Shown here: piece by piece, positions 2,791 to 63,128 of the stretch
How positions within the stretch are numbered: the stretch's first letter is position 1
How the letters are laid out: every line of letters begins with the position of its first letter
Notes under the pieces: generated by a model
The model's database searches: none
Seen by the model: the letters and a program-made list of their open reading frames with translations, nothing else
Told to the model about the DNA's origin: nothing
Made by a program: the position numbers and the translations under genes
Source of the DNA: Escherichia phage 1-6bf
Sequence record: OR983334.1
DNA: 64,000 bases
Direction: 5' to 3' (one strand)

Positions 2791-5779
2791 ACTCTATCGT
2801 TAACCCATTGATAGCAGCATTACTGTTAACATCATTATCTATAACATTATAGAAAAGGTATGGATGGTTCAGTCTCACCGAGACATGTCTGTCAACACCG
2901 ATTGTATAAGTCTTAGATGTGTGTGGGTGTCCATATTCATTTGAGAATTGACTACCTCCAGCTTCAAAGGTATAGGTGCCTGAGCCAGTTGTCTGAGGAC
3001 GGAATCTATTAACATGCTTCTGATTCCACTCATTCGTCACATTATCAAAATCTATACCAGTCCTCTCCAACCTCATTTCCAGAGGCTTCTCTATAACAGC
3101 ATCATTTAATCTGTCATAGAAATAGTCAAGAGCGCCTACATCCACTTGGTAGAATCCCCTCAAGAATGAACCTACTATCGTAATCCTCTGTCTGAAGTTT
3201 GTTGCATCCTTTCTCCAAACAAGCTCTTTGATCGATGGGTCATCCCAAGTGATTTCTTGGAAGTCAGCCCAAATTGGACCCCTTTCAAGGACAGGAGGAT
3301 CAACCAAACCAATACACTGAGCATATGGGATAGTACGGAAAGACCAAGTATCAAACTCGTAATTCCATACAGCAGCTTTAGTACAAGCATAACTTTCCTT
3401 AGGCTCTCCCGGACCTACATAAAGAATCCAAACCTCCTTTTTATCTTGATGTAAGTGAACTCTGGTAGCTAACGGGTTGACCAGACAGATCTCATTAATC
3501 AGCATGTTCTTGACACGGTTGGAAGCGATTGACTTCTTAGTTGCGCCGTTATGTAAGATCACATCGTTCTGAGTAACAACGAAATGGCTACCTTCTACTT
3601 CAACTGCACACTCAGGAGCAAGGATACCAGAGTCATTAAAGAGTTTCTTGAACATCAGTGGTTGATACGTGTTATTAGTCGGAGAACCAATGTACGTTTC
3701 AAACTCCGTGTAAACGAACAAGTAATCTTTAAGAGGTAGGATATCAATCAAGCTGCCATTGGAGTCTGCTAAATCAATGTAACCAGCATAACCATTTTCC
3801 AGAGCCTCAGTCTGCCCAACTATGTTCGAAGCTAAGTCAGATGTTACTAAACGATCATAGGCAAAGTCATCCCATAGTGTAGGAGCTTTGTTCTCATTAG
3901 CAAAATTAGACCAACGAAGACGAAGTGGGTAGTTAGTTGTAACGCCAGAAGCATTTGATTCCCTCATATTCAGGGCAAAGAGCCTGTTGTTAAAAGAACG
4001 AACTCTTTCACATTTCCAGTTGAACTTCTTAACTGAAGGATTCCCATCACTATCTACCACTGTTTGTTCTCCCCACCCCGGAAGATCAGTAAAATGTTCA
4101 GATTCGAATTCTTTTACTTGTGGTGTTTCATAGTGAGTTGTAGCAACTGCACAGTTTGATATAACAGCATGATACCAAGGATAGTCGTCAAACGCGTCAT
4201 AATCCCTTTGTGTCATTTGGCTGACAGAACATGTTATGTTAATCTCACCTTTGCGAAGAGCTGTAAGTTTAATAGATTTACCAGTTACTGAAGTAGTTGA
4301 GACATAGCCAGTTTTGTCTACAGACCATAAGTACGAGTAGTCACCCTCTGGAGACGCTGTAGCTGTAATAACGATCTCCTCTCCTACATCAAGAGAAGCA
4401 CTAACTACATCTAATGTTACAGAGTCTAAAGGAGTGGCAAAAAGAGAGGCTCTTGCAAAACCTTCCATGTCATCAACGTTTGAATAATCATAGAAGCTAT
4501 TTCCTTCAGACATTCCAGTAGTATCAATCCCAGAGGAGGGTGATGCAAAATATAAAACCTCTTCTGATTCAGGAACTACTACATCCTCGACCACTTCTGG
4601 AGCATCTGGTTCAGTAGAAGACTCAGCCATAAGAGAGGTTCTCATCATCCTTCCAGCCAAATCTACACGAACTGTACAGACAGCGGTTCTGTTGCCCTCT
4701 TGAGTAGTAGCAGTAATCTCAGTGAATCCAGCTGTAATTGCAGTGATGGTAGCCTCTGTGCTCGTACCAGACACTGTAGCAATATTCGGGTTAGAGGAAG
4801 TCCATGTTATATTTTTATTAGGAGCATTCGTTGGAGACACTGTAGCTGTGAGAATATATTGAACCCCTCTATTAATGGTAACATCTGTTTGACTCAGAGT
4901 AATACTATCAATCTGTGGGATTACATTAACAATACATGATGCAGTTTTTGTTCCATTGTCTGCTGTAACAGTTGCTGTCCCTTCTCCATTAGCTACAAGC
5001 ACTGCTGTGAGTGTGTTAGCATTAGGTGTTATAGAAATGATAGAGCCATTAGTAGTGGACCAACTTACAGAAGTTTTACCAGTCACCGCAGTTATGGTAG
5101 TATTTCCACCTTTACGGACAGTCAGAGTATCCTGACTCAAGAAAATACCTGAGTCTCCGTCAATAATATTGACAGCAATCTGAGCTGATACAGATTCATC
5201 TTTAGTCTGAACTGTAACTACGAGATTACCTTCTTTATTCAAAGACGTCAAAGAGGCTTTCTTAGAGTCAGTAGGGTCTACAGTGATCTGACCGTAAGAA
5301 GAGTTACTAACACTCCAAACAAGTTCAGGGTTATTAGCATCTTCTGGAGAGATTGTAACTTCTAGAGATTTAGTTTGGTTGAAGTTCATAGAAATAGTAG
5401 ACTCTTTAGGAGTAATCCTAGAGACTACAGGGTATATCTTGATATTAGCAGAAGCTTTTTTAGTGACCGTAGCAACTTTCCTGCTGATATCAGTTAAGCT
5501 TTCATCTGTTAGTTTATATAACTTCTTATTGGTTCCCACAATAAGAAAGCTATTACCTGCACTATAGTAATCGAAAGGCATAGATATGAAAGATAATGGG
5601 GTTAGATCCTTATCTTCATCTACGTAAGAAAGAGGGGCATTGCCCCCCGTCTTAAAAACTCTCTGCTCAACAAATCGAGCGTTTATAGCGTTAGTGAAAG
5701 CGTTAGGAGCTAAATCAGTAGGTGCTTGGTCAGCAATAACACCGACAGCACCGAGTGATTTTATTGGATACAACGCCAT
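2768..5779 (-). CDS. Large virion structural protein with tandem bacterial Ig-like (Big_2-type) domains (1003 aa)
   Basis: ORF track; repeated Thr/Ser/Val-rich segments (ITAVTGKTSVSWSTTNGSI..; VTISPEDANNPELVWSVSNSS..) typical of Big_2 domains. Confidence 0.5.
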   Translation of the reverse strand: MALYPIKSLGAVGVIADQAPTDLAPNAFTNAINARFVEQRVFKTGGNAPLSYVDEDKDLTPLSFISMPFDYYSAGNSFLIVGTNKKLYKLTDESLTDISRKVATVTKKASANIKIYPVVSRITPKESTISMNFNQTKSLEVTISPEDANNPELVWSVSNSSYGQITVDPTDSKKASLTSLNKEGNLVVTVQTKDESVSAQIAVNIIDGDSGIFLSQDTLTVRKGGNTTITAVTGKTSVSWSTTNGSIISITPNANTLTAVLVANGEGTATVTADNGTKTASCIVNVIPQIDSITLSQTDVTINRGVQYILTATVSPTNAPNKNITWTSSNPNIATVSGTSTEATITAITAGFTEITATTQEGNRTAVCTVRVDLAGRMMRTSLMAESSTEPDAPEVVEDVVVPESEEVLYFASPSSGIDTTGMSEGNSFYDYSNVDDMEGFARASLFATPLDSVTLDVVSASLDVGEEIVITATASPEGDYSYLWSVDKTGYVSTTSVTGKSIKLTALRKGEINITCSVSQMTQRDYDAFDDYPWYHAVISNCAVATTHYETPQVKEFESEHFTDLPGWGEQTVVDSDGNPSVKKFNWKCERVRSFNNRLFALNMRESNASGVTTNYPLRLRWSNFANENKAPTLWDDFAYDRLVTSDLASNIVGQTEALENGYAGYIDLADSNGSLIDILPLKDYLFVYTEFETYIGSPTNNTYQPLMFKKLFNDSGILAPECAVEVEGSHFVVTQNDVILHNGATKKSIASNRVKNMLINEICLVNPLATRVHLHQDKKEVWILYVGPGEPKESYACTKAAVWNYEFDTWSFRTIPYAQCIGLVDPPVLERGPIWADFQEITWDDPSIKELVWRKDATNFRQRITIVGSFLRGFYQVDVGALDYFYDRLNDAVIEKPLEMRLERTGIDFDNVTNEWNQKHVNRFRPQTTGSGTYTFEAGGSQFSNEYGHPHTSKTYTIGVDRHVSVRLNHPYLFYNVIDNDVNSNAAINGLTIEFAVGGRR

Positions 5780-17694: not shown

Positions 17695-19236
17695 TTAGTA
17701 ACTCTGATTCCATCTGCTTACGTTTGCCTCATACAGAGAAGCACTTCCGTAGCTAACATCATGTTTAGAGCGACCACGATGTGTAACAGAGCACGCTGAA
17801 TAGCGCATTGCATCCATTAAGTCATCATATTCTTTAATAATCTTACCAACCTTACGGTGATATCTAGCTTTCTCTTCGAATAGCTTAGCGTTAGCGGCTG
17901 TGTTAAAGATTTTAAAGCGTCCACTCATCATTCTTTCTCGGATATCTGTGATTCCCGGTTCTACAAAGAAGTTCTTTTTACCATCCATTCCAATTTTGTT
18001 GTAGAAGGTCTCACTCTGTACGTTAACTCCTGCATTCTTATAGAATTGAGCAACAGATGAGCCACTACCTTTCTCAATATTGTCCGCATCGTGCGGTAGG
18101 ATGACAGGAATCCACTGACCACGACCATTAATAGCTGGAGCATGATACACTGGAGTAAAGCCACCTTCTTTATATGAGTCGTAAACATAGATAGTATCCG
18201 TGTTTGCGTCGTAAGCTGTCCAAACAGCAGCAGTTGGGTGATCAATACCAATATCAATTGCACAGACACGTTTCCACGTATCGGGAATTTCGAATGGCTC
18301 ACATTTAATTGTGTCATCCGATACATCATATATCAAACCACTTCCTAACAATGGCATACCTTTCGAACGCATTTCTAATTGCCACGCTGGAATACCTTCA
18401 GTCATATCTTTTATATCTTGGTCAGTGATATGTCCACCTAGGTCTACATGAGCATCCCACCAAGAAGCATTCTGGAAATATAGAGAACCTGTGTTCTCAT
18501 CCCCTTCACCTTTCATAAATTTATCTACCAGTTCCGTTAAACCGTTCTCTGGTGTAGCTGTAATTGTAACTAGACCTTTAGTTGTGAGTGTACGTGTGAC
18601 GCACTGTGCGAATATAGCCATAGACTCGTATGGATCTTCTTCGTCTAACCAAATGTAGTCAACTGTCGCACCCATCAATGTGTGTTCACCCTGTTGGGTT
18701 GAACGGAATTCTAATGTACTTAAACCGTCAAACTCTCCTCTTTCATTTTGATGTTTGATTTGTACGATTTGAAGTTTGTTACCATCTCGTTCTATCGTGT
18801 CAATGACGATAGCATCACGAGGAATGACACCTGTCCCTAATAAGTTTGTATCCTTTCCGATAGGTGTACCAAACAATTCCTTTTGCAATACTTTCCTTGT
18901 GGAATCCCCTGTAATACCAACTGCCCATGCTAAGATAGGTCTTTTAAATTTATATCCTGTCCACCAAGTTGGGTAGCGACCTGTGACATGACAAGCAAAC
19001 TCGTATGCCTCGCTGTAAGATTTACCAACACGGTTCGCTGCACACAAGAATCTAAAGCGATGCTTCAATCCTGCTGCATAAAATTTCTTTTGGAAGTCGT
19101 ACGCCTTGAAAGACAAAATCCTATTATACTTCCTCCATTGGTCACGCTCTTTCAACATATTCAATAGTGCTTTCTTTTCGTCTACACTAAGGTTGTTACC
19201 AGTTAGAGCTTCATAAATTTGTTTATCTAATGACAT
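17695..19236 (-). CDS. Terminase large subunit
   Basis: Walker A-like CAANRVGKS, Walker B-like YIWLDEED, C-terminal acidic nuclease-like region AIDIGIDHP. Confidence 0.65.
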   Translation of the reverse strand: MSLDKQIYEALTGNNLSVDEKKALLNMLKERDQWRKYNRILSFKAYDFQKKFYAAGLKHRFRFLCAANRVGKSYSEAYEFACHVTGRYPTWWTGYKFKRPILAWAVGITGDSTRKVLQKELFGTPIGKDTNLLGTGVIPRDAIVIDTIERDGNKLQIVQIKHQNERGEFDGLSTLEFRSTQQGEHTLMGATVDYIWLDEEDPYESMAIFAQCVTRTLTTKGLVTITATPENGLTELVDKFMKGEGDENTGSLYFQNASWWDAHVDLGGHITDQDIKDMTEGIPAWQLEMRSKGMPLLGSGLIYDVSDDTIKCEPFEIPDTWKRVCAIDIGIDHPTAAVWTAYDANTDTIYVYDSYKEGGFTPVYHAPAINGRGQWIPVILPHDADNIEKGSGSSVAQFYKNAGVNVQSETFYNKIGMDGKKNFFVEPGITDIRERMMSGRFKIFNTAANAKLFEEKARYHRKVGKIIKEYDDLMDAMRYSACSVTHRGRSKHDVSYGSASLYEANVSRWNQSY

Positions 19237-19397: not shown

Positions 19398-19871
19398 TTA
19401 ACTCTCGTCCGCTTCCTCCCCCTTTTCAGCGTCCTCAGAGTTGTCTTCTTCTGGAGGCATAACGTCGATACCAAGTGCTCCAGTCAAGAAGTCCTTGATT
19501 TGTGCATTCAATGATTCTTCGTTGATTACATTCTCTTCCTCAATCTTAACTTCAACAGAGGCCGCCTTAGGATATACCAGATCTGCAACTTTTGATGCAG
19601 CCTTGAATCTAAGATCGGGTGGAATATTAGGATCTTCGTAAATTTGAATTAACACTTCATCAGGAGACAAATGACTTGCAGCAACACGGTCCAACATTAA
19701 TTGTGTCAGTTTACCTCTACTACCTCTGGGTCGTCCGAATTTATTTCCCTTTTGAAACTTCCCATTGCTTGGGTTCATACCACGGCTTTCGAGTTCTTCC
19801 GTTACTCCGGGTAATCTTCCTGTAATCTCAGCTACCTGTGCAGGCGTGAGTTCTCCGTTTTCTCCAAACAT
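19398..19871 (-). CDS. Terminase small subunit candidate
   Basis: 157 aa ORF immediately upstream of the large subunit; basic N-terminal part, acidic tail. Confidence 0.35.
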   Translation of the reverse strand: MFGENGELTPAQVAEITGRLPGVTEELESRGMNPSNGKFQKGNKFGRPRGSRGKLTQLMLDRVAASHLSPDEVLIQIYEDPNIPPDLRFKAASKVADLVYPKAASVEVKIEEENVINEESLNAQIKDFLTGALGIDVMPPEEDNSEDAEKGEEADES

Positions 19872-19927
19872 TTTATACTCCTTCTACATTATCAACAACA
19901 CAAAAAGCCTCCCAATGGAGGCAAATA

Positions 19928-20819: not shown

Positions 20820-21033
20820 AATTCTTCTCCTCTGAATAAGAGTATAAAGGGCACATCATAAGACCTACCCGTAAAGGCACCCTCACATTGACACCCGTGA
20901 GCATACCTGTATTCATTTTCGTAGTCTTCTTCAGAGAAGCTACCATATTCATCTTCAGTCATAAATCCCTCTGATAAAGTTAAGACATAAAGGGGACTTC
21001 ATGTTAAGGCACCCCCATAAAGGCCATGTCACG

Positions 21034-21240
21034 TTAAGGCTTATCCACCCACGTACTGAATCTCAACTTACCACATTCCTTACACTTCCATGTTGATAGA
21101 TACAAACCATGTATTCTTTCATCCCCGTAAGCTTTACGAAGAAGATAGTAATTGTGCTTACACTTCATCCGTCTAAATACTTTAATTAGATTCATTAAGT
21201 CCTCTCTTAAGCTTAAATCCACAACATAAAGTTGGGGCAT
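21034..21240 (-). CDS. Small Cys-rich protein (68 aa)
   Basis: CKHNYY..CKECGK pairs suggest a zinc ribbon. Confidence 0.3.
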   Translation of the reverse strand: MPQLYVVDLSLREDLMNLIKVFRRMKCKHNYYLLRKAYGDERIHGLYLSTWKCKECGKLRFSTWVDKP

Positions 21241-21379
21241 ATTCTTATATATAAGAGTTTAAAATTCTGATTTGGCCGAGTGGGGCTAGCCGCTTCCCGC
21301 GCGTTTCCTAAAAAGGGGGAGTCCTCATTTAAAAAAGGGTTATTGGCAATGCCTTTACCTTCCCTTTCAACGTTCCACC

Positions 21380-21860
21380 TTTCCCCGTGCCTACTCCCCG
21401 TAGTTATTCCCCCGTGTATACTACCCAATACATTACCTACCCGTTTATTTAGTTCCCCTTTAAAGGGTGAGAGAAAGGCTAGCACTGTATAAACTAGTAC
21501 AGGCACAACCATAACAGGTCTGATAATACCGTATTGTTACCGTTCCAATGGCAGCGTTAGCGTCGCATTCCCCCCACAGTTTGAGTGTAAATAGTTTCAA
21601 TAGTAATGATTATGAGTGCAATAATGATGTATGTATTAATTAAGTGGAAAGATAGTAATTAACAGTTATTATATTCTTTTATTACTTTCTTTTTTCAGCG
21701 TACATGAGCGTAGCGAATGGTCTTTGATGTTTGAGTTATACAATTATTTAAGTGGTATATTATTACCGCACTATCTTGCATGTTTCCCCGTGGTCTGTCC
21801 TGCGGTTGTTGTATCCCCGTTTGTCCTGGTCTGTTGGTCTGTTACCCGTAGTGTTATAAA
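21380..21860. repeat. Iteron-like cluster (CCCCGT x5, ACCCGT x2, GGTCTGT x3) flanking an AT-rich block
   Basis: Direct reading: ttccccgtgcc, ctccccgtag, tcccccgtgt, ctacccgttta, tttccccgtgg, tatccccgtttg, ttacccgtag; AT-rich stretch about 21590-21720. Confidence 0.5.
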
Positions 21861-21960
21861 GTAACAATAAGAAGTAAGCTGATTCTCTGAGTATGGAAAG
21901 TTTAGTAAATTAAATTCCTTTAGTTTTCAGTAGGATGCAAGAAAGTTAGAAAATAGATGG

Positions 21961-21988
21961 TTGACAGTCTTTTCCTTTAATATATAGT
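21961..21988 (+). promoter_or_regulatory. Sigma70-type promoter for rightward early genes
   Basis: TTGACA, 16 nt spacer, TATAGT; about 40 nt upstream of the 22027 gene. Confidence 0.5.
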
Positions 21989-22026
21989 TGTCGATAGTTG
22001 GTTGAATTTATCTAAGGAGTAACGAA

Positions 22027-22524
22027 ATGGCTAAAGCAATGCAGGTAGTTAATCTGGCAAGTTATGCACTAGTTGCAGCGATTGGTGTTAGTGCACTGGT
22101 CACATCTCTTTCTGATAAGGCTATCGCTAGTCCTACTCCTACTCCTGCAACTGATGCGGCTAGTGTCTTCTCTAGTTCCATCAATAAGGGTTGGATGATT
22201 TGTAACGGTGCTGATAGTGATGGCACTTCCATCGTGTTAAAGATGAAATTTAGCAACGTTACTAATGATGGTGTTCTCTTTCAATCTAAAACGCTAGATA
22301 ATCAGCCTAACAGTGATTTGGTGCTTAAGCGTACCGATAACGATATGGATATGGTGACATTTGGCACTGTACAACGTTATGAAGACGTTAAAGCCGTTAC
22401 TAATCTTGTGAGTTATGGTCCGGTTAATGAGTCGATGATCGCCACAACTGTTTACAATAACGCTGACAACGCTGTTTATACTGTTCACGTTAATTTAGCC
22501 AACTGCATTAAGGCTAGTAAGTGA
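22027..22524 (+). CDS. Secreted early protein (165 aa)
   Basis: N-terminal signal-peptide-like MAKAMQVVNLASYALVAAIGVSALVTS; GGAGT RBS. Confidence 0.45.
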   Translation: MAKAMQVVNLASYALVAAIGVSALVTSLSDKAIASPTPTPATDAASVFSSSINKGWMICNGADSDGTSIVLKMKFSNVTNDGVLFQSKTLDNQPNSDLVLKRTDNDMDMVTFGTVQRYEDVKAVTNLVSYGPVNESMIATTVYNNADNAVYTVHVNLANCIKASK

Positions 22525-23624: not shown

Positions 23625-24007
23625 GCTTAATCTTTCTTCTGTATTGTGCCGTAGTCATGCCTATGGTCATAATCTATCTGATTCTCTAATCCTTCCTGTA
23701 AGCCTCCTAGTGAGGCTTTTCTCTTTTATGAGGTGAGTGTATGCCTTACTCCCTTTTAGCTCGTTGTGATGCGTTTTAGGCCGCTAAATATCGCTTTACA
23801 AGCCGTTTTCTATGATGTATCGCGTGCGCCTGCTCTTTTACCTTCCTATAGTGAAAAAGTTTAAAATAATTTGCTTTACCCTATTGCAATCTCATCTGAT
23901 TAGCGTATACTTCATTTCATCGGGTACGATGTAAAACATACAAGGCAAGAAATTGCCCCGCTCTTTAAAAATCAGGTTAGAAAGTGAAAATATTCTCAAA
24001 AAGAGTA

Positions 24008-24036
24008 TTGACACCGAAAACAGCCTGATATATAGT
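24008..24036 (+). promoter_or_regulatory. Strong sigma70-type promoter P1
   Basis: TTGACA, 17 nt, TATAGT, then GAGCAT; A-rich upstream element. Confidence 0.6.
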
Positions 24037-24139
24037 GAGCATAGTCAGCGATGACTTAAAAAATCCCGCTCTTTAAAAACTTATCATCTTGCCCTTTCGC
24101 ATAGATTCACGCGAGATAAGGGAAAGGAATTAAAAGAAG

Positions 24140-24274
24140 ATGATAAAAAGAGTTGCAAACGTGGTTAAAGTAGTCCATACTAACCACAAGTTAGCAGATA
24201 CACCGCTAACAAGTTCCCAAATCAACGTATCGCGGGAAAAGTGGCACATAGTGCAGCGAGTAGTTCGGGTGTAG
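24140..24274 (+). CDS. Candidate small basic ORF (44 aa) in leader region
   Basis: ATG preceded by GGAAAGGA; below the ORF-track size cutoff; weak support. Confidence 0.2.
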   Translation: MIKRVANVVKVVHTNHKLADTPLTSSQINVSREKWHIVQRVVRV

Positions 24275-24455
24275 GCGGCCCGTTAATGAATAAGTAAGCC
24301 TTAAATGTGACAGTGATTAGCAGACACTCTAAAAGGCTAACGCTCTTTAACAATATGAATCATAAGTTAAGCATCACCGCTTAATCTTCAATCAAATAAA
24401 GCTGATTGATATATCCTCCCAATAGCGGGAACGACGAAAAAAGATTAAAAAGCGG

Positions 24456-24484
24456 TTGACAGCGAAAACAACATGATTCATAAT
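24456..24484 (+). promoter_or_regulatory. Strong sigma70-type promoter P2 (duplicate of P1)
   Basis: TTGACA, 17 nt, CATAAT, then GAGCAT; spacer nearly identical to P1. Confidence 0.6.
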
Positions 24485-25404
24485 GAGCATCACTTAAGCA
24501 AATCACCGCTTAAGGAAAGCGTAACAACGGCTAACAGTTGCATAGTGTGAGAAAGCACACTGATAGATTTACCGCTCTTTAATAATTTAAACATTCTCCT
24601 ATATCGGTTGAATATGCTGGATGATAATAACCATCGGAAAGCATACCAGATAAAACGGCGTAAAACTCCCTAAATTATCAGGGTAAACAGTTTTACATTC
24701 CCTTACTGGAAACGTCACCACTGGTAAACGGATTCATTGAGTGCACGCAAAGGCTTAAGCTAATCGCCCACGGTTAAGGGTAGCGGCGGTCATCGCTAAC
24801 AAGGCGCTACAGTGAAAGAAGTTAATCAGGGTAGGCAATCCCGACGAATTAACGCCCAATTGAGGGCGGCGGGGAGTGGTTAAAAGTGGCAAATTGCTAT
24901 TTAACAATAAGGTTTAGTGTGAACGTTTACGATGTGAACGGCTTGAGATTCATCTTATGATGAAAGTACATAGTCGGGTAATGTAGTAAACTCGCTGAAA
25001 GATATAAAACGTCGGAATATTAGGCGGTTAGTGACTCTTTCGCAATAGTATCCCGTAGTGGGCGATGACTAGCGATAGAGAGCTGATATAAAAGGATAGG
25101 CGAGAGCGAAAGCAAAGTGGACGATATTGCCGACGGTTACAATAATGTAACTAATTAGAGTCGGACACACAGCCTTATTGTGATGATTGATCATCGCTAT
25201 CAGGTCGGCTTCGTTTATAGCGACTAATTAAAGATACCAGATGAAACATCACGGATAAGGGGGCGGCAAGGTTAACTCCTGATAAGACCGCCCCGCTTAC
25301 CTATAACTACTTAACAACGAGTGGTTATAGTTAAGTTAATAGTGACTTAAACAAGCTCATAGAGAGCGGGGCAATAGCGCCCTTACAATTGAAAGGTGAA
25401 TATC

Positions 25405-28350: not shown

Positions 28351-28549
28351 TCACTAGTGCCAGATTTGACAAACTAAATTCCTTTATAAACCAACCACTT
28401 AGTAAATTTATTGAAAAAGATGGCAGTATTCTGGAACTATGGGTAATGCTCTGTATATAGACCCTTTGAAAATTTCTTAGAAAATAAGTTTACTAAATAT
28501 AACTTACTTAAATAATATTACTTTTAATCTCTGATAAAGGGTAAATAAT

Positions 28550-28846
28550 ATGACTTTAGAAGTATATAAATTCCTTTTTGTAAGCTGTTTAACTATCAGC
28601 GTTCTAGGATTTATTATTCTCAGAAACAAAGCAGCAAGCTGGGAGAGAATGTATAAATCCCTAGTTCGAGTGGATGAGATGTATAATGAGAAAGTTAAAG
28701 TAACACTTAACGATCTTATTATGCAAGTAGAGGACAGAAACAAGCGTCTTCAGAACCTCAACAATGAAGTATTACGCCTTGCTCGTGCTAATGAAGACTT
28801 GCGAGTAGCTATTGCTAAGCAGCAGGAGATTAACAATGAAGCATGA
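28550..28846 (+). CDS. Membrane-anchored coiled-coil protein (98 aa)
   Basis: N-terminal hydrophobic segment then heptad-like region (NKRLQNLNNEVLRLARANEDLRVAIAK). Confidence 0.35.
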   Translation: MTLEVYKFLFVSCLTISVLGFIILRNKAASWERMYKSLVRVDEMYNEKVKVTLNDLIMQVEDRNKRLQNLNNEVLRLARANEDLRVAIAKQQEINNEA

Positions 28847-48474: not shown

Positions 48475-49824
48475 ATGATTGTTATCCCGATTAACCGAAT
48501 TGAAGATAAGGTTGCTCAACAACCTGATATCACTGTTGGTCGTCACTTCATTGAACAGCTGATTAACAACAACTTGATTCCAGACTGTATTTGTCCTATC
48601 ATCACTGGTGGGGCTATTCGTGATGCTGTGCTTAATAACACAGCTCCGCATGACATTGATATCTTTATTGTCAGAGGACAGGCCCCAAGAACTCGAAATA
48701 CTTTCATCCGTCATGAGCAGTGGCAAGATCTCGGACGAGAAGTTGAAAGTAACGTTAAAGAGTGGCTTGAGTCTCAAGATATTGAATATGCATCACTTCT
48801 TGCTGAAGCTACAAACGAATCCTATGCTGGGGGTTCTCAATTAACATTCACTGATATTATTGAGTTTCAGTGGAATGGGGTTCGTATCCAATTCATGTTT
48901 AATTATCCTACTTCTATCGAAGAGGTATTGGATAACTTTCCTATGATGTGCCGTGGTGCGATGACTCTTGACAACTTATTCATGACTTCTCACGGATACT
49001 TGGCTATGACTGCCCCTTGTCCAGTGGTTGTTTCTAGTCGTGAAATCAGGTATGTTCACAAGAAGTGGCCTAATTCACAAGTGTTGAGATTTTCCTCTCC
49101 AGCAGTTGCACATCAATACATGGCCCAAACTCGATATCTTCCCACACCTCAGCCAGTTAGTCACCTAGTCAATGGATTAGGTCAGGTTTCTCTTATTGAA
49201 GATACAACAAGTGCTCTATATTGTGTTAACCGAGACATGAGTCTATTCTTTGGAATCCCTTATGAAGAGATTCAGATTATGTCTAGTCTTCACGGTTCCG
49301 GTCAGATTCATGCGTATTGGTCTGAAGGGTTGACAAATTTAACGACTAATACAGGAGGAGATCTACTTGGTCGAGAAGAAGAGCCTAGTCGTCATAACGC
49401 AATCGAAGGGGTGTTTGTAGCCCCTACAAGACGCCGAGCAAACGAAGCACGAAATATAAGCTCTACTCGTAGAACATCTTTTGAAGAAGCTCTTGGTATT
49501 ACAAGTGATTCTATGGAGAGATGGATGGCTAGTCCTTCTCGTGGTCGACCAAACGGCTTCAATGTTAGTGCACGTCAGTTCTCTGGTCAGGGTTTCGCTG
49601 TTGGTGATATCAACGCTCCTTCTCGTGTTATCTGGACTGATGAAGGCGTGGCTCAAGATGTGGTAGGTAGTCTCTCCGATCTTGATATTCCTTCTCATGA
49701 CGAACTCGCTGAGACTGTCAGCCGCAGTCTCGCTGATCGGTTTGTTGCCAACAATCCTGAAGTATTAGAGCCTCAGGTTGGTGGAGAACTGGACCACTTA
49801 ATAAATTCACAAAACATTCGCTAA
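48475..49824 (+). CDS. Pol-beta-type nucleotidyltransferase with CCA-adding-enzyme-like head motif (about 450 aa)
   Basis: ITGGAIRDAVLNNTAPHDIDIF matches the GGxVRD..DxD head motif; rest divergent; ATG at 48475 right after exonuclease stop. Confidence 0.45.
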   Translation: MIVIPINRIEDKVAQQPDITVGRHFIEQLINNNLIPDCICPIITGGAIRDAVLNNTAPHDIDIFIVRGQAPRTRNTFIRHEQWQDLGREVESNVKEWLESQDIEYASLLAEATNESYAGGSQLTFTDIIEFQWNGVRIQFMFNYPTSIEEVLDNFPMMCRGAMTLDNLFMTSHGYLAMTAPCPVVVSSREIRYVHKKWPNSQVLRFSSPAVAHQYMAQTRYLPTPQPVSHLVNGLGQVSLIEDTTSALYCVNRDMSLFFGIPYEEIQIMSSLHGSGQIHAYWSEGLTNLTTNTGGDLLGREEEPSRHNAIEGVFVAPTRRRANEARNISSTRRTSFEEALGITSDSMERWMASPSRGRPNGFNVSARQFSGQGFAVGDINAPSRVIWTDEGVAQDVVGSLSDLDIPSHDELAETVSRSLADRFVANNPEVLEPQVGGELDHLINSQNIR

Positions 49825-62582: not shown

Positions 62583-63128
62583 AGAACCTGTAGTTTATAA
62601 AGACTCTATCAGAGATAAATATAATGAGATGTTAAAGAAACAAGCTGATTCTAGTCTTCACTATCAGAGGATAGTAGAACAATCTAACTTTAAAGGTTTA
62701 CTTGAATGGTAACTTATATCCTTTACTTTTTAGCTTTCTTAGGAATAATCTTTTTATCTATTGTTCTTGAATTTGGTTTAAGTAAGTTAGTTAATTATTT
62801 AGGTAATAAGTAATTAATATTCTTTTAAATAGAGAATCAAAGTCCCTAGGAGTCCCTACAACCTAAATCAAGGATTCCTTAATTCTCTATTTTTATCTCG
62901 CAGGTGGCTCCTGCCCTTCGGTACTTGCAAGGGATTCTGTGAATTGCCCAATATACAAGCCTGCAATAACTTTATCAGCTATACAATATATACATTACTA
63001 GTGTGTTATATCTACTACCAAAGATACTTATATTATATAGTACTCTTATCGGTATAAGCGTAATGTATACTATACATAACCGCTCAAAGAGAGCAACAAT
63101 CTTTCAAATTAAATAAGGAAATTAAAAT

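Follow-up and report, generated by a model that had tools for sequence, protein, structure and literature searches.

The closest described counterparts of the region analysed here are the direct terminal repeats (DTRs) of the Kuraviruses, a group of phiEco32-like podophages. A terminal repeat of 193 bp has been mapped in phiEco32 by restriction analysis and primer walking, in SU10 by read drop-off, with blunt ends, in Paul by PhageTerm and in YF01 by nanopore. How phiEco32-like phages recognise, cut and duplicate this repeat without a T7-type RNA polymerase was stated to be unknown in the SU10 paper, which also reports that, as in phiEco32, the last gene is preceded by one sigma-70 promoter. 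In the relative 7-11, validated early promoters are found at its right end.

A short terminal repeat, of 160 bp, is also present in T7, where processing involves the phage's own RNA polymerase, which pauses at ATCTGTT just after the repeat; the phiEco32 group lacks such a polymerase. Since a literature search on the SRL/SRR arrays of T7 found nothing, the arrays were checked directly on the T7 sequence, in which the word CCTAAAG is distributed 13:0 between the strands, from -106 to +332 around the repeat and in 13-bp steps. These are the SRL/SRR arrays of Dunn and Studier, for which no role is known to have been established.

Phage tf (LUZ24-like) has a large terminase subunit (TerL) related to that of the source phage (37%) and a short DTR of 186 bp. 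The same word, GATATCCC, stands at both edges of the tf repeat, and the cut falls in or next to a palindromic hexamer. Terminase sites that are built of repeated sub-sites are known from lambda (cosB R1-R3) and SPP1 (pacL/pacR).

The probable genome-end junction

At 98.7% identity, the source phage matches Escherichia phage 1-6af, a Kuravirus. When the phiEco32 and YF01 records are aligned to the window (the whole 64-kb stretch of DNA that was analysed), their ends fall exactly on positions 21288 and 21480, and over these 193 bp the identity is 91% to phiEco32 and 86% to YF01, whose record is annotated as direct terminal repeat at 1-193 and 78434-78626. By BLAST coordinates, the SU10 alignment stops at the same point as the phiEco32 and YF01 ends, and the ends of IMEP8 and VTCCBPA_211 map within about 2 bp of it. 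The repeat is found once in the window, as expected if the assembly collapsed both copies, and the ORF map and homologues place it between gene 1 and the last early gene, as in the Kuraviruses, with the terminase genes about 1.4-2 kb away. The segment and its neighbourhood comprise the following features.

21244..21283, no strand assigned: nearly invariant block CTTATATATAAGAGTTTAAAATTCTGATTTGrCCGAGTGG (alignment; conservation 0.85-0.87)
21284..21290, plus strand: boundary word GGCT^AGC, virion right end, predicted cut between 21287 and 21288
21288..21480, no strand assigned: very probable 193-bp direct terminal repeat, single collapsed copy (alignment to phiEco32 and YF01 record ends)
21297..21339, no strand assigned: most conserved DTR block, CCCGCGCG-N-AAAAAGGGGGAGTCCTCATTTAAAAAAGGG (conservation 0.92 across 14 genomes)
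21477..21483, plus strand: boundary word GGCT^AGC, virion left end, predicted cut between 21480 and 21481

Judged by these alignments, 21288-21480 is in all likelihood the junction and DTR of the source phage. Compared with the DTRs of phiEco32, SU10, Paul and YF01 it would be the same element, 193 bp long and 86-91% identical, with the boundaries and the conserved block at ~130-170 in common, and it likewise sits between gene 1 and the last early gene, the latter again preceded by a sigma-70 promoter; there is no substantive difference. Since 21288-21480 would represent a collapsed DTR, the surrounding ORF-free region 21241-22026 is very probably the genome-end (concatemer) junction plus the non-coding right end of a phiEco32-like genome in a circularised assembly. 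In the phiEco32 orientation the virion left end would be at 21480, reading toward 21288, and the right end would stop at 21288, with the repeat present at both ends.

The original prediction had offered a replication origin as its preferred reading of this region and a terminal-repeat junction as the alternative. It is the alternative that gains from the mapped ends of phiEco32 and YF01, which align inside the region, while the tests add nothing to the origin. The description of 21241-22026 as ORF-free was accurate, as no conserved ORF was present, and neither a tRNA search nor an Rfam search of the region gave a match (Rfam, E up to 1). The leftward arm had been called late, which does not agree with the gene classes of SU10 (early, genes 1-3; late, CDS 4-24), by which the gene set adjoining the region is not late. 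In most relatives nothing is marked in the corresponding interval, and conservation is higher in its non-coding DNA than in the genes on either side. N4-like hairpin promoters were also considered and were dropped, since the taxonomy of the best matches was Kuravirus.

Within the 64 kb, both DTR boundaries read GGCTAGC and no other site does, and GGCT^AG or xCCT^AG is retained at the boundaries in 14/14 genomes. The tetramer CTAG is depleted genome-wide, at 0.76 of expectation. It is likely that the terminase cuts at GGCT^AGC. This would resemble phage tf in the use of one word at both edges and in the palindromic core (GCT^AGC in the source phage, GATATC-CC in tf), whereas tf differs in having one blunt end and one 4-nt 3' overhang and localized nicks. 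The DTR edge GCCGCTTCCCGCGCGTTT had been likened to the cos 20-mer of PaP3, which is bound by the PaP3 small terminase subunit (TerS); the best local alignments of the 20-mer lay elsewhere in the window, so the likeness is not significant.

The block at 21297-21339 corresponds to the 'highly conserved region ~130-170' of the DTR described in the YF01 paper. Its AAAAGGGGGAGTCCTCA, with CCGCGCG upstream, is also found in 88-90-kb relatives that have different repeat arrays, and we regard the block as the best candidate for the recognition site of TerS. In Cronobacter phage 009 and Aeromonas phage 4_4572 the block was absent even at 4 mismatches, and the genome ends of these two phages therefore could not be placed by homology. 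The block at 21244-21283 is located just outside the DTR on the gene-1 side and may be cut-site context or the promoter of gene 1, for which a search for a leftward sigma-70 promoter gave no convincing consensus match.

The genes that bear on the junction are as follows.

17695..19236, minus strand: large terminase subunit (TerL), 99% identical to phiEco32 TerL
19398..19871, minus strand: putative small terminase subunit (TerS), phiEco32 gene 6 homologue (profile match and synteny)
21034..21240, minus strand: first leftward gene, homologue of phiEco32 gene 1, small Cys-rich protein (homology)
22027..22524, plus strand: first rightward early gene, in the position of phiEco32 gene 128

TerL is 39% identical to LUZ24/tf-group TerL and 32% to P22 TerL, and among the matches listed (45 of 417) and in the organism and host counts its relatives were Kuravirus-like, LUZ24/tf-like and P22-like, with no T7-like phage; the gp19-type terminase of T7 is thus not shared. 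TerL would be expected to make the cuts at the DTR boundaries. Immediately upstream of TerL is the putative TerS gene, whose product matches the NV1 and PaP3 small-terminase structures 7joq and 6w7t (E 0.004 and 0.08) by profile, via the oligomerisation core. A fold search with an AlphaFold model of pLDDT 68 gave no significant Foldseek match in the PDB, PaP3 TerS being ranked 14 with E about 4. The TerS assignment, from a weak profile match and synteny, is putative, and the same assignment was made by HMM in the YF01 paper. Ahead of the gene, at 19883-19891, stands the phage-sigma promoter word TAATGTAGA; in phiEco32 a phage-sigma promoter sits upstream of gene 6. For the first leftward gene, whose PHROG match spans residues 15-66, translation probably starts at the ATG at 21195, which has an RBS at 21201-21208. 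For the rightward early operon the RBS, AAGGAG, is at 22014-22019 and the ATG at 22027. Its first gene has its nearest sequence matches in NJ01, PE006 and O18-011, where the matching gene is likewise the first one rightward.

Oriented repeat arrays at the junction

Short repeats had been reported in the original prediction, and all were recovered on the plus strand: CCCCGT five times (21383, 21396, 21410, 21786 and 21815), ACCCGT twice (21439 and 21844) and GGTCTGT three times (21792, 21828 and 21836), each copy of the last reading TGGTCTGT. The pyrimidine bias noted for 21360-21470 is also real (69% pyrimidine; C 39, G 13), as is the AT-richness of 21590-21720 (27% GC; lowest 100-bp stretch 20%). 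The repeats fall into two arrays, with further copies to the left.

20867..21128, plus strand: outlying copies, ACCCGT at 20867 and 20893 and CCCCGT at 21123, inside the first leftward genes
21383..21444, plus strand: array D, CCCCGT at 21383, 21396 and 21410 and ACCCGT at 21439 (spacings 13, 14 and 29 bp)
21786..21849, plus strand: array R, CCCCGT at 21786 and 21815 and ACCCGT at 21844 (spacings 29 and 29 bp)

Array D is inside the DTR, 35-97 bp from the left-end cut, and in all Kuravirus-type genomes its core CCCGT stands +97, +110, +124 and +153 from the boundary; the counterpart in EP335 and Bas89 has 4-5 copies at about 30-bp spacing. Array R is in the unique right-end DNA, 306 bp beyond the DTR and upstream of the sigma-70 early promoter, and is interleaved with TGGTCTGT at 21791, 21827 and 21835. 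Across genomes its internal spacing of 29-30 bp is kept and its distance to the DTR varies from 443 to 514. GGTCTGT is less conserved, with only the first copy, which is fused to CCCCGT, being widespread. Equivalents of the outlying copies occur in most relatives, none on the opposite strand; coding constraint may account for these three copies, and whether they belong to the arrays is uncertain.

Repeat counts within a single sequence are weak evidence, only modestly above chance. Compared with the remainder of the window the clustering is strong, five of the eight plus-strand copies of CCCCGT being found within 440 bp (Poisson about 1e-9 before multiple testing). Over 20860-21860 the CCCGT strand ratio is 10:0 (four copies in the DTR, three to the right and three to the left), an exclusivity reached in 2/300 shuffles. 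In a divergent genus represented by EP335 and Bas89, with 64% identity here, CCCGT, the word specified beforehand for this test, was again 10:0 and the top 5-mer, with 0/1000 shuffles equalling it. We lean towards the view that the arrays are functional protein-binding sites; that they serve packaging or maturation is a more tentative proposal.

A structured RNA was rejected as an explanation: there were no Rfam matches, no tRNA and no compensatory stem changes, the sole consensus stem at array R, CCGCA/TGCGG, being invariant and no covariation supporting RNA structure being found there.

The arrangement is most readily compared with the T7 junction. Both have a short exact terminal repeat, a one-stranded word of 6-7 bp inside the repeat and on both sides of it, steps of 13 bp together with longer ones of about 25-30 bp, and more non-coding DNA and promoters on one side. 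They differ in the word itself (CCTAAAG in T7, CCCGT here) and in copy number (13 in T7 versus 7-10 here). In phage tf, the nearest mapped relative by TerL, candidate arrays were not statistically convincing, and the array architecture is therefore not universal among DTR phages.

A comparison with lambda cosB and the SPP1 pac sites is also instructive. As in those systems, several sub-sites are present within about 100 bp of a cut, on the side packaged first and near the terminase genes (array D adjoins the left-end cut, with TerS and TerL encoded 1.4-3.6 kb away), and, as in SPP1, the cut has another set of sub-sites on its far side. The sub-sites here differ in being all direct repeats without an IHF site, and there would be two cuts 193 bp apart rather than one staggered cut or headful start. 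Array R, at least 300 bp from the nearest cut and at a variable distance, is unusual for a terminase site. Binding of TerS to the arrays is putative and unsupported by covariation: the TerS of ECBP2, a phage that has the same array layout with the motif variant TACCCAT, shares about 90% identity with that of genomes carrying CCCCGT arrays. Since TerS is nearly constant while the array word changes, it is not indicated as the reader of the arrays.

One-stranded words were also found in Cronobacter phage 009 (Privateervirus; ACTATG, 10 copies) and Aeromonas phage 4_4572 (Lahexavirus; GGCATG, 9 copies). The array word types named for the relatives are CCCCGT, TACCCAT, CCCCACGT, ACTATG and GGCATG. 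A speculative and rather doubtful extension, drawn from T7 (CCTAAAG), Kuravirus and Nieuwekanaalvirus (CCCCGT), ECBP2 (TACCCAT), 009 (ACTATG) and 4_4572 (GGCATG), is that strand-exclusive arrays of a lineage-specific word around short DTRs form a recurrent, unnamed class of genome-end signal in podophages, which would be read by a junction-binding factor other than TerS and would set the polarity of concatemer cutting and repeat duplication.

Origin, transcription or no function

The other readings of the region depend largely on the AT-rich block and the DNA to its right.

21572..21647, no strand assigned: invariant non-coding block where the AT-rich zone begins (conservation 0.86-0.94), with an 18-bp tandem repeat at 21604-21639
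21588..21720, no strand assigned: AT-rich block, 20-27% GC, ending in the invariant TTTCTTTTTTCAGCGT at 21686-21701
21743..21769, plus strand: invariant block with an extended -10-like element, TGgTATATT (21753-21761), directed rightward into array R
21961..21988, plus strand: sigma-70 early promoter TTGACA-N16-TATAGT (11/12 consensus matches)

In the reading as a replication origin, the (C/A)CCCGT arrays would be iterons flanking the AT-rich block at 21588-21720, which would melt so that the phage primase-helicase can be loaded; transcription starting at the extended -10 element or at the early promoter might assist. Such a function could coexist with a junction role. The block, with its minimum of 20% GC, does have a repeat array on either side, both in the same sense and about 150 and 65 bp away, and the AT-rich zone contains strongly conserved non-coding blocks. 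Its TTCTTTCAGCGT word occurs also in the 88-kb relative L024. The centre of the block, however, varies in length as well as sequence and scores lowest for conservation (0.60), and two stretches of the window are more AT-rich, one of which carries divergent phage-sigma promoters, so that the block ranks third. The region is like iteron-type origins such as lambda ori and plasmid oriV in having direct repeats beside an AT-rich stretch, and departs from them in repeat length, spacing, initiator gene and DnaA boxes: the repeat core is 6-8 bp at spacings of 13, 14 and 29-30 bp, compared with phased iterons of 17-22 bp, no initiator-like (Rep/O-type) gene was matched among the neighbouring proteins, and 21241-22026 contains neither a DnaA box (up to 1 mismatch) nor an exact IHF consensus. 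Furthermore, since array D is inside the terminal repeat, a full origin of this kind would be present at one virion end only. T7 has secondary origins at promoters next to its genome ends, where phiOL and phiOR are annotated, and the TGGTC words of array R match the pentamer recognised by primases of the T7 gp4 type. No origin is mapped in the phiEco32-group literature found; on balance we consider an origin at this site unlikely.

A purely transcriptional role, with the repeats acting as operators, pause sites or leader RNA for the early promoters and the early-to-middle switch, and with the phage RNAP-binding proteins gp79 and gp36 or an early repressor as candidate effectors, appears very unlikely to us. 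Strand exclusivity would fit transcription-coupled signals, the near-consensus sigma-70 promoter is kept in phiEco32, YF01, EP335 and Bas89, and TGgTATATT, a candidate promoter element by consensus match, is conserved and points toward array R; array D, however, is inside the repeat, 500 bp upstream of the known promoter and facing away from it. Phage-sigma promoter words with one mismatch are present at 21427-21435 (minus strand) and 21978-21986 (plus strand), but the six mapped phage-sigma promoters of phiEco32 are located elsewhere. Array R contains (A/G)TCTGTT, similar to the pause signal located after the repeat in T7, in a phage group without a phage-type RNA polymerase able to read it, and a leader RNA finds no support in covariation or in Rfam. 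It is also improbable that the short repeats are functionless, the by-product of a C-rich, slowly evolving repeat and an old partial duplication by which array R, 403 bp away, came to resemble array D. In shuffles of the 786 bp that keep local composition some hexamer reached at least 5 copies in 37/300, motif cores compared column by column were not clearly better conserved than their surroundings, and over 17 nt around their first copies the two arrays agree to 82%. Against a by-product, CCCGT also leads the strand-exclusive words of the 64%-identical genus, where its copies stand at different positions, as in site turnover, the internal spacing of array R is kept while its flanks change, and analogous arrays with other words are found in distant relatives and T7. 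The explanation that probably fits the region best overall is the known terminal-repeat and packaging junction, with previously undescribed T7-like oriented repeats.

Proposed packaging at the junction and its wider meaning

We propose that during packaging the terminase, TerL with the putative TerS, would recognise the junction on concatemeric DNA, most likely at the invariant block CCCGCGCG...AAAAAGGGGGAGTCCTCA (21297-21339), and would then cut within both GGCT^AGC words, which are separated by 193 bp. Strand-displacement synthesis, as in the T7 model, would duplicate the repeat and give blunt-ended genomes. The (C/A)CCCGT arrays may be the binding sites of a junction-organising protein, not demonstrably TerS, that would give the junction its polarity. 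When the right end enters the cell, the sigma-70 promoter at 21961-21988 would fire rightward into the early genes.

For annotation, the analysis would fix the true genome ends and orientation: a corrected record would begin on the minus strand at 21480 and contain both copies of the 193 bp, and the seemingly empty 0.8 kb would be accounted for without invoking a new element. Neither the boundary word GGCT^AGC nor the CCCCGT arrays are described in the phiEco32-group literature found (Savalia 2008 and Pavlova 2012 being outside its scope). If the arrays behave as in T7 the finding is an ordinary one, and if a new factor reads them, DTR-type packaging gains a component. GGCT^AGC, the invariant block AAAAAGGGGGAGTCCTCA and the oriented CCCCGT arrays are concrete candidates for the signals of recognition, cutting and duplication in these phages, and the same three elements would be a minimal cassette for packageable plasmids in a phage group that is used therapeutically.

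Genome ends and the terminal repeat

Over the ORF-free region at 21241-22026 and the sequence on either side, identity is 98.7% to Escherichia phage 1-6af and 83-96% to about 100 other Kuravirus coliphages, the phiEco32-like podophages of C3 morphotype. An identity as an N4-like phage was dropped, the matches being to Kuravirus. The reverse-complemented window was aligned to both ends of phiEco32 and YF01, and these alignments place the right genome end (...GAGCGGCT-3') at window 21288 and the left genome end (5'-AGCCTTTCTC...) at 21480. The SU10 record stops at the same mapped end point, those of IMEP8 and VTCCBPA_211 fall within ~2 bp of it, and the direct terminal repeat (DTR) annotated in YF01 is exactly the same 193 bp. 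Four phages have a mapped repeat of this length: phiEco32 (restriction profiling with primer walking and subcloning), SU10 (read drop-off, which showed blunt ends), Paul (PhageTerm) and YF01 (full-length nanopore reads). Similarity has also revealed repeats of 192-193 bp in 30 members of the phiEco32-like group. The 193 bp at 21288-21480 are 91% identical to the phiEco32 repeat and are present once in the window, which implies a permuted assembly in which both repeats have been merged. From homology to the mapped genomes, it is very likely that what the original prediction called a divergent control region represents the concatemer junction together with the non-coding right genome end.

Boundary word, terminase and conserved blocks

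Features of the junction and the terminase genes (window coordinates)
21284-21290 and 21477-21483: boundary word GGCT^AGC, with both DTR boundaries at the word centre
21244-21283: invariant block just outside the repeat
21297-21339: invariant DTR block CCCGCGCG...AAAAAGGGGGAGTCCTCATTTAAAAAAGGG, the best-conserved part of the repeat
21572-21647: invariant block that includes an 18-bp tandem repeat
21686-21701: invariant TTTCTTTTTTCAGCGT
21743-21769: invariant block containing the extended -10-like TGgTATATT
17695-19236: large terminase subunit (TerL), 99% identical to phiEco32 TerL
19398-19871: putative small terminase subunit (TerS), the gene directly upstream of TerL

Within the 64 kb, the GGCTAGC heptamer is found only at the two DTR boundaries, and CTAG is depleted in the genome. 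All 14 aligned genomes have the CT^AG core at the first boundary, and 12 of the 14 have it at the second. Similarly, in phage tf both edges of the 186-bp repeat carry GATATCCC, as checked on its sequence; the tf authors proposed this word as the terminase core site, and the tf large terminase is a relative of the window TerL. The homologue profile of the putative TerS matches the NV1 and PaP3 small-terminase structures via the oligomerisation core (E 0.004 and 0.08, respectively), and the YF01 authors made the same assignment; the TerS structure model gave no significant fold match. A likeness of the repeat edge to the PaP3 cos 20-mer failed an objective test. Elsewhere, five + strand copies of CTAGTC occur at 49034-49534 (49034, 49165, 49283, 49385 and 49529; intervals 100-145 bp), the genome total being 12 observed against 32 expected, with CTAG-containing words depleted. 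The flanks of these five copies are unrelated, and they are possibly due to chance or coding.

Conservation of the non-coding sequence is 0.8-0.94, compared with 0.3-0.7 for the flanking genes. The core of the DTR block, AAAAGGGGGAGTCCTCA, is present even in the 88-90-kb relatives in IMG/VR, and since the block persists with a conserved TerS core in such very distant relatives, 21297-21339 is the leading candidate TerS site. Within the right end, the best-conserved non-coding block contains an imperfect 18-bp tandem repeat at 21604-21639 (AGTAATGATTATGAGTGC / AATAATGATGTATGTATT), which may be a protein-binding site. One 90-kb IMG/VR contig of a distant relative that shares the invariant DTR block (3300031419_000013) has the 20-bp unit TTTGTAAAGTTATGTCAAGT three times in tandem at ~667-726 (offsets 596-655 from its block-ii match at locus position 72), directly upstream of a perfect TTGACA-17-TATAAT promoter.

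Oriented repeat arrays and rival readings

Groups of (C/A)CCCGT repeats (window coordinates)
21383-21444, + strand: array D, inside the DTR
21786-21849, + strand: array R, in unique right-end DNA
20867, 20893 and 21123, + strand: further same-strand copies in the first leftward genes

The elements described in the original prediction were all located: CCCCGT on the + strand at 21383, 21396, 21410, 21786 and 21815, ACCCGT at 21439 and 21844, three copies of GGTCTGT, each within TGGTCTGT (21791, 21827 and 21835), a pyrimidine content of 69% over 21360-21470, and an AT-rich block with 27% GC over 21590-21720 (100-bp minimum 20%). The leftward ORF ends at 21240 and the rightward ORF starts at 22027; the gap contains no conserved ORF, and no tRNA or Rfam match was found there. 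In every Kuravirus-type genome the CCCGT cores of array D lie at +97, +110, +124 and +153 from the boundary. The internal spacing of array R (29-30 bp) is conserved, while indels in the AT-rich zone make its distance to the repeat vary from 443 to 514 bp. Across ~950 bp in each of the 14 genomes, no copy was found on the opposite strand.

From the window sequence alone the repeat evidence is weak: when the 786 bp were shuffled with local composition kept, some hexamer reached at least five copies in 37 of 300 trials, and column by column the motif cores show no clear gain in conservation over the adjacent positions. The case for the repeats lies in other evidence. Compared with the rest of the genome they are concentrated here, five of the eight + strand copies of CCCCGT lying within 440 bp, and the CCCGT strand ratio of 10:0 over 1 kb was reached in 2 of 300 shuffles. 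In EP335 (Nieuwekanaalvirus) and Bas89, which are 64% identical here, the pre-specified word CCCGT was again 10:0; it was the top 5-mer and 6-mer core, and its count was reached in none of 1000 shuffles. This result contradicts an origin of the repeats by chance or passive duplication, which we consider quite unlikely. The EP335 and Bas89 copies stand at partly different positions with a regular ~30-bp spacing, and such apparent site turnover with the array retained is the pattern of binding-site arrays. GGTCTGT is less general; wide conservation is limited to the copy that is fused to the first array R CCCCGT. Words similar to ATCTGTT, the T7 class II pause/termination signal that occupies the seven bases directly following the T7 terminal repeat, are GGTCTGTT (twice, 21828-21843), GATCTGTTT in EP335 and TGTCTGTTT in Bas89, but a T7-type polymerase is absent from the phiEco32-like group.

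In ECBP2 the invariant block is kept, but the array word is (C)TACCCAT/G instead. Since TerS is ~90% identical between CCCCGT and TACCCAT genomes, covariation does not implicate TerS as the array reader. Two distant relatives have other words: the ORF-free divergent region of Cronobacter phage 009 (1.7 kb) has ACTATG ten times on one strand across 3613-5343, nine of them in 4422-4907, and that of Aeromonas phage 4_4572 (2.8 kb) has 8-9 strand-exclusive copies of GGCATG, eight in 4360-5186. The steps in these arrays are 14-15 and ~30 bp, and both arrays are significant by the same shuffle test. In T7, all 13 copies of CCTAAAG in the stretch from -106 to +332 that spans the 160-bp terminal repeat are on the same strand (two before, three inside and eight after the repeat), and they often follow one another in 13-bp steps. 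We take these to be the SRL/SRR arrays of Dunn and Studier. Phage tf shows no convincing short-repeat array, so the layout is common, not universal.

The original prediction preferred an iteron-type replication origin and offered a terminal-repeat junction as the alternative; it is the alternative that the evidence favours, the mapped phiEco32 and YF01 ends aligning inside the region. The accessible literature holds no mapped origin for phiEco32-like phages, which leaves room for one here, but in length and phasing the repeats do not resemble iterons, one array sits inside the terminal repeat, and no DnaA box, IHF consensus or initiator-like neighbour was found in or near the region. Furthermore, the centre of the AT-rich block is its least conserved part, and other stretches of the window are richer in AT and also carry promoters, making an origin unlikely. 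A purely transcriptional role would leave unexplained why one array lies within the repeat and 500 bp behind the promoter, and no RNA structure signal was found; we regard it as very unlikely.

Promoters and proposed action of the junction

Promoter of the right end
21961-21988, + strand: near-consensus sigma-70 early promoter TTGACA-N16-TATAGT, preceding the first rightward gene

This agrees with the single host-type promoter upstream of the last gene in SU10 and phiEco32, and right-end early promoters have been validated in the relative 7-11. The word of the phage (gp36-type) sigma factor, tAATGTAtA, occurs with one mismatch at 21427-21435 (-) (TAATGTATT), inside the repeat and toward gene 1, and at 21978-21986 (+) (TAATATATA), overlapping the early promoter -10; window-wide, 21 such matches were observed and 21 expected, which is chance frequency. 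A second large ORF-free stretch in the early arm (23625-25395, 1.8 kb) has a terminator-like hairpin at 23700-23718 (+) and near-consensus sigma-70 promoters at 24008-24036 (TTGACA-17-TATAGT) and 24456-24484 (TTGACA-17-CATAAT), and probably corresponds to the "three promoters between genes 120 and 121" of SU10 and phiEco32. The ORF-free, very AT-rich 62713-63128 (18% GC at 62744) carries phage-sigma words TAATGTATA in near-palindromic pairs at 62980-62997 (-) and 63061-63079 (+/-); by its sequence it resembles a divergent middle-promoter region, and as a "promoter plus AT-rich" origin candidate it is at least the equal of 21241-22026. The most AT-rich 100 bp of the window (28471-28570, 17% GC) lie between small early ORFs. 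For the first leftward gene, the ORF call and the 1-6af annotation start at ATG 21240, the family match begins at residue 15, and ATG 21195 has a strong RBS (AGAGAGGA, 21201-21208); the start at 21240 is probably over-extended.

We propose that the terminase would act on concatemers at the junction, cutting at the two GGCT^AGC words, and that strand-displacement synthesis of the kind proposed for T7-type genomes would duplicate the 193 bp between the cuts and give blunt ends. The arrays are probably binding sites for a protein that gives the junction its organisation or polarity. The early promoter would fire rightward into the early genes, and a further transcript, running through array R, may start from the extended -10-like element.

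The Kuravirus terminal repeat and junction are already known, and the window element is another copy. The shared boundary word, the invariant block reaching beyond the genus and the T7-like oriented arrays appear to be undescribed in the accessible literature, and these three features add new detail to a type of system that is already known. The preferred origin interpretation is corrected and the junction alternative supported. The SU10 paper stated that the end-processing mechanism of phiEco32-like phages was unknown; the present finding supplies testable packaging-signal candidates for this group.
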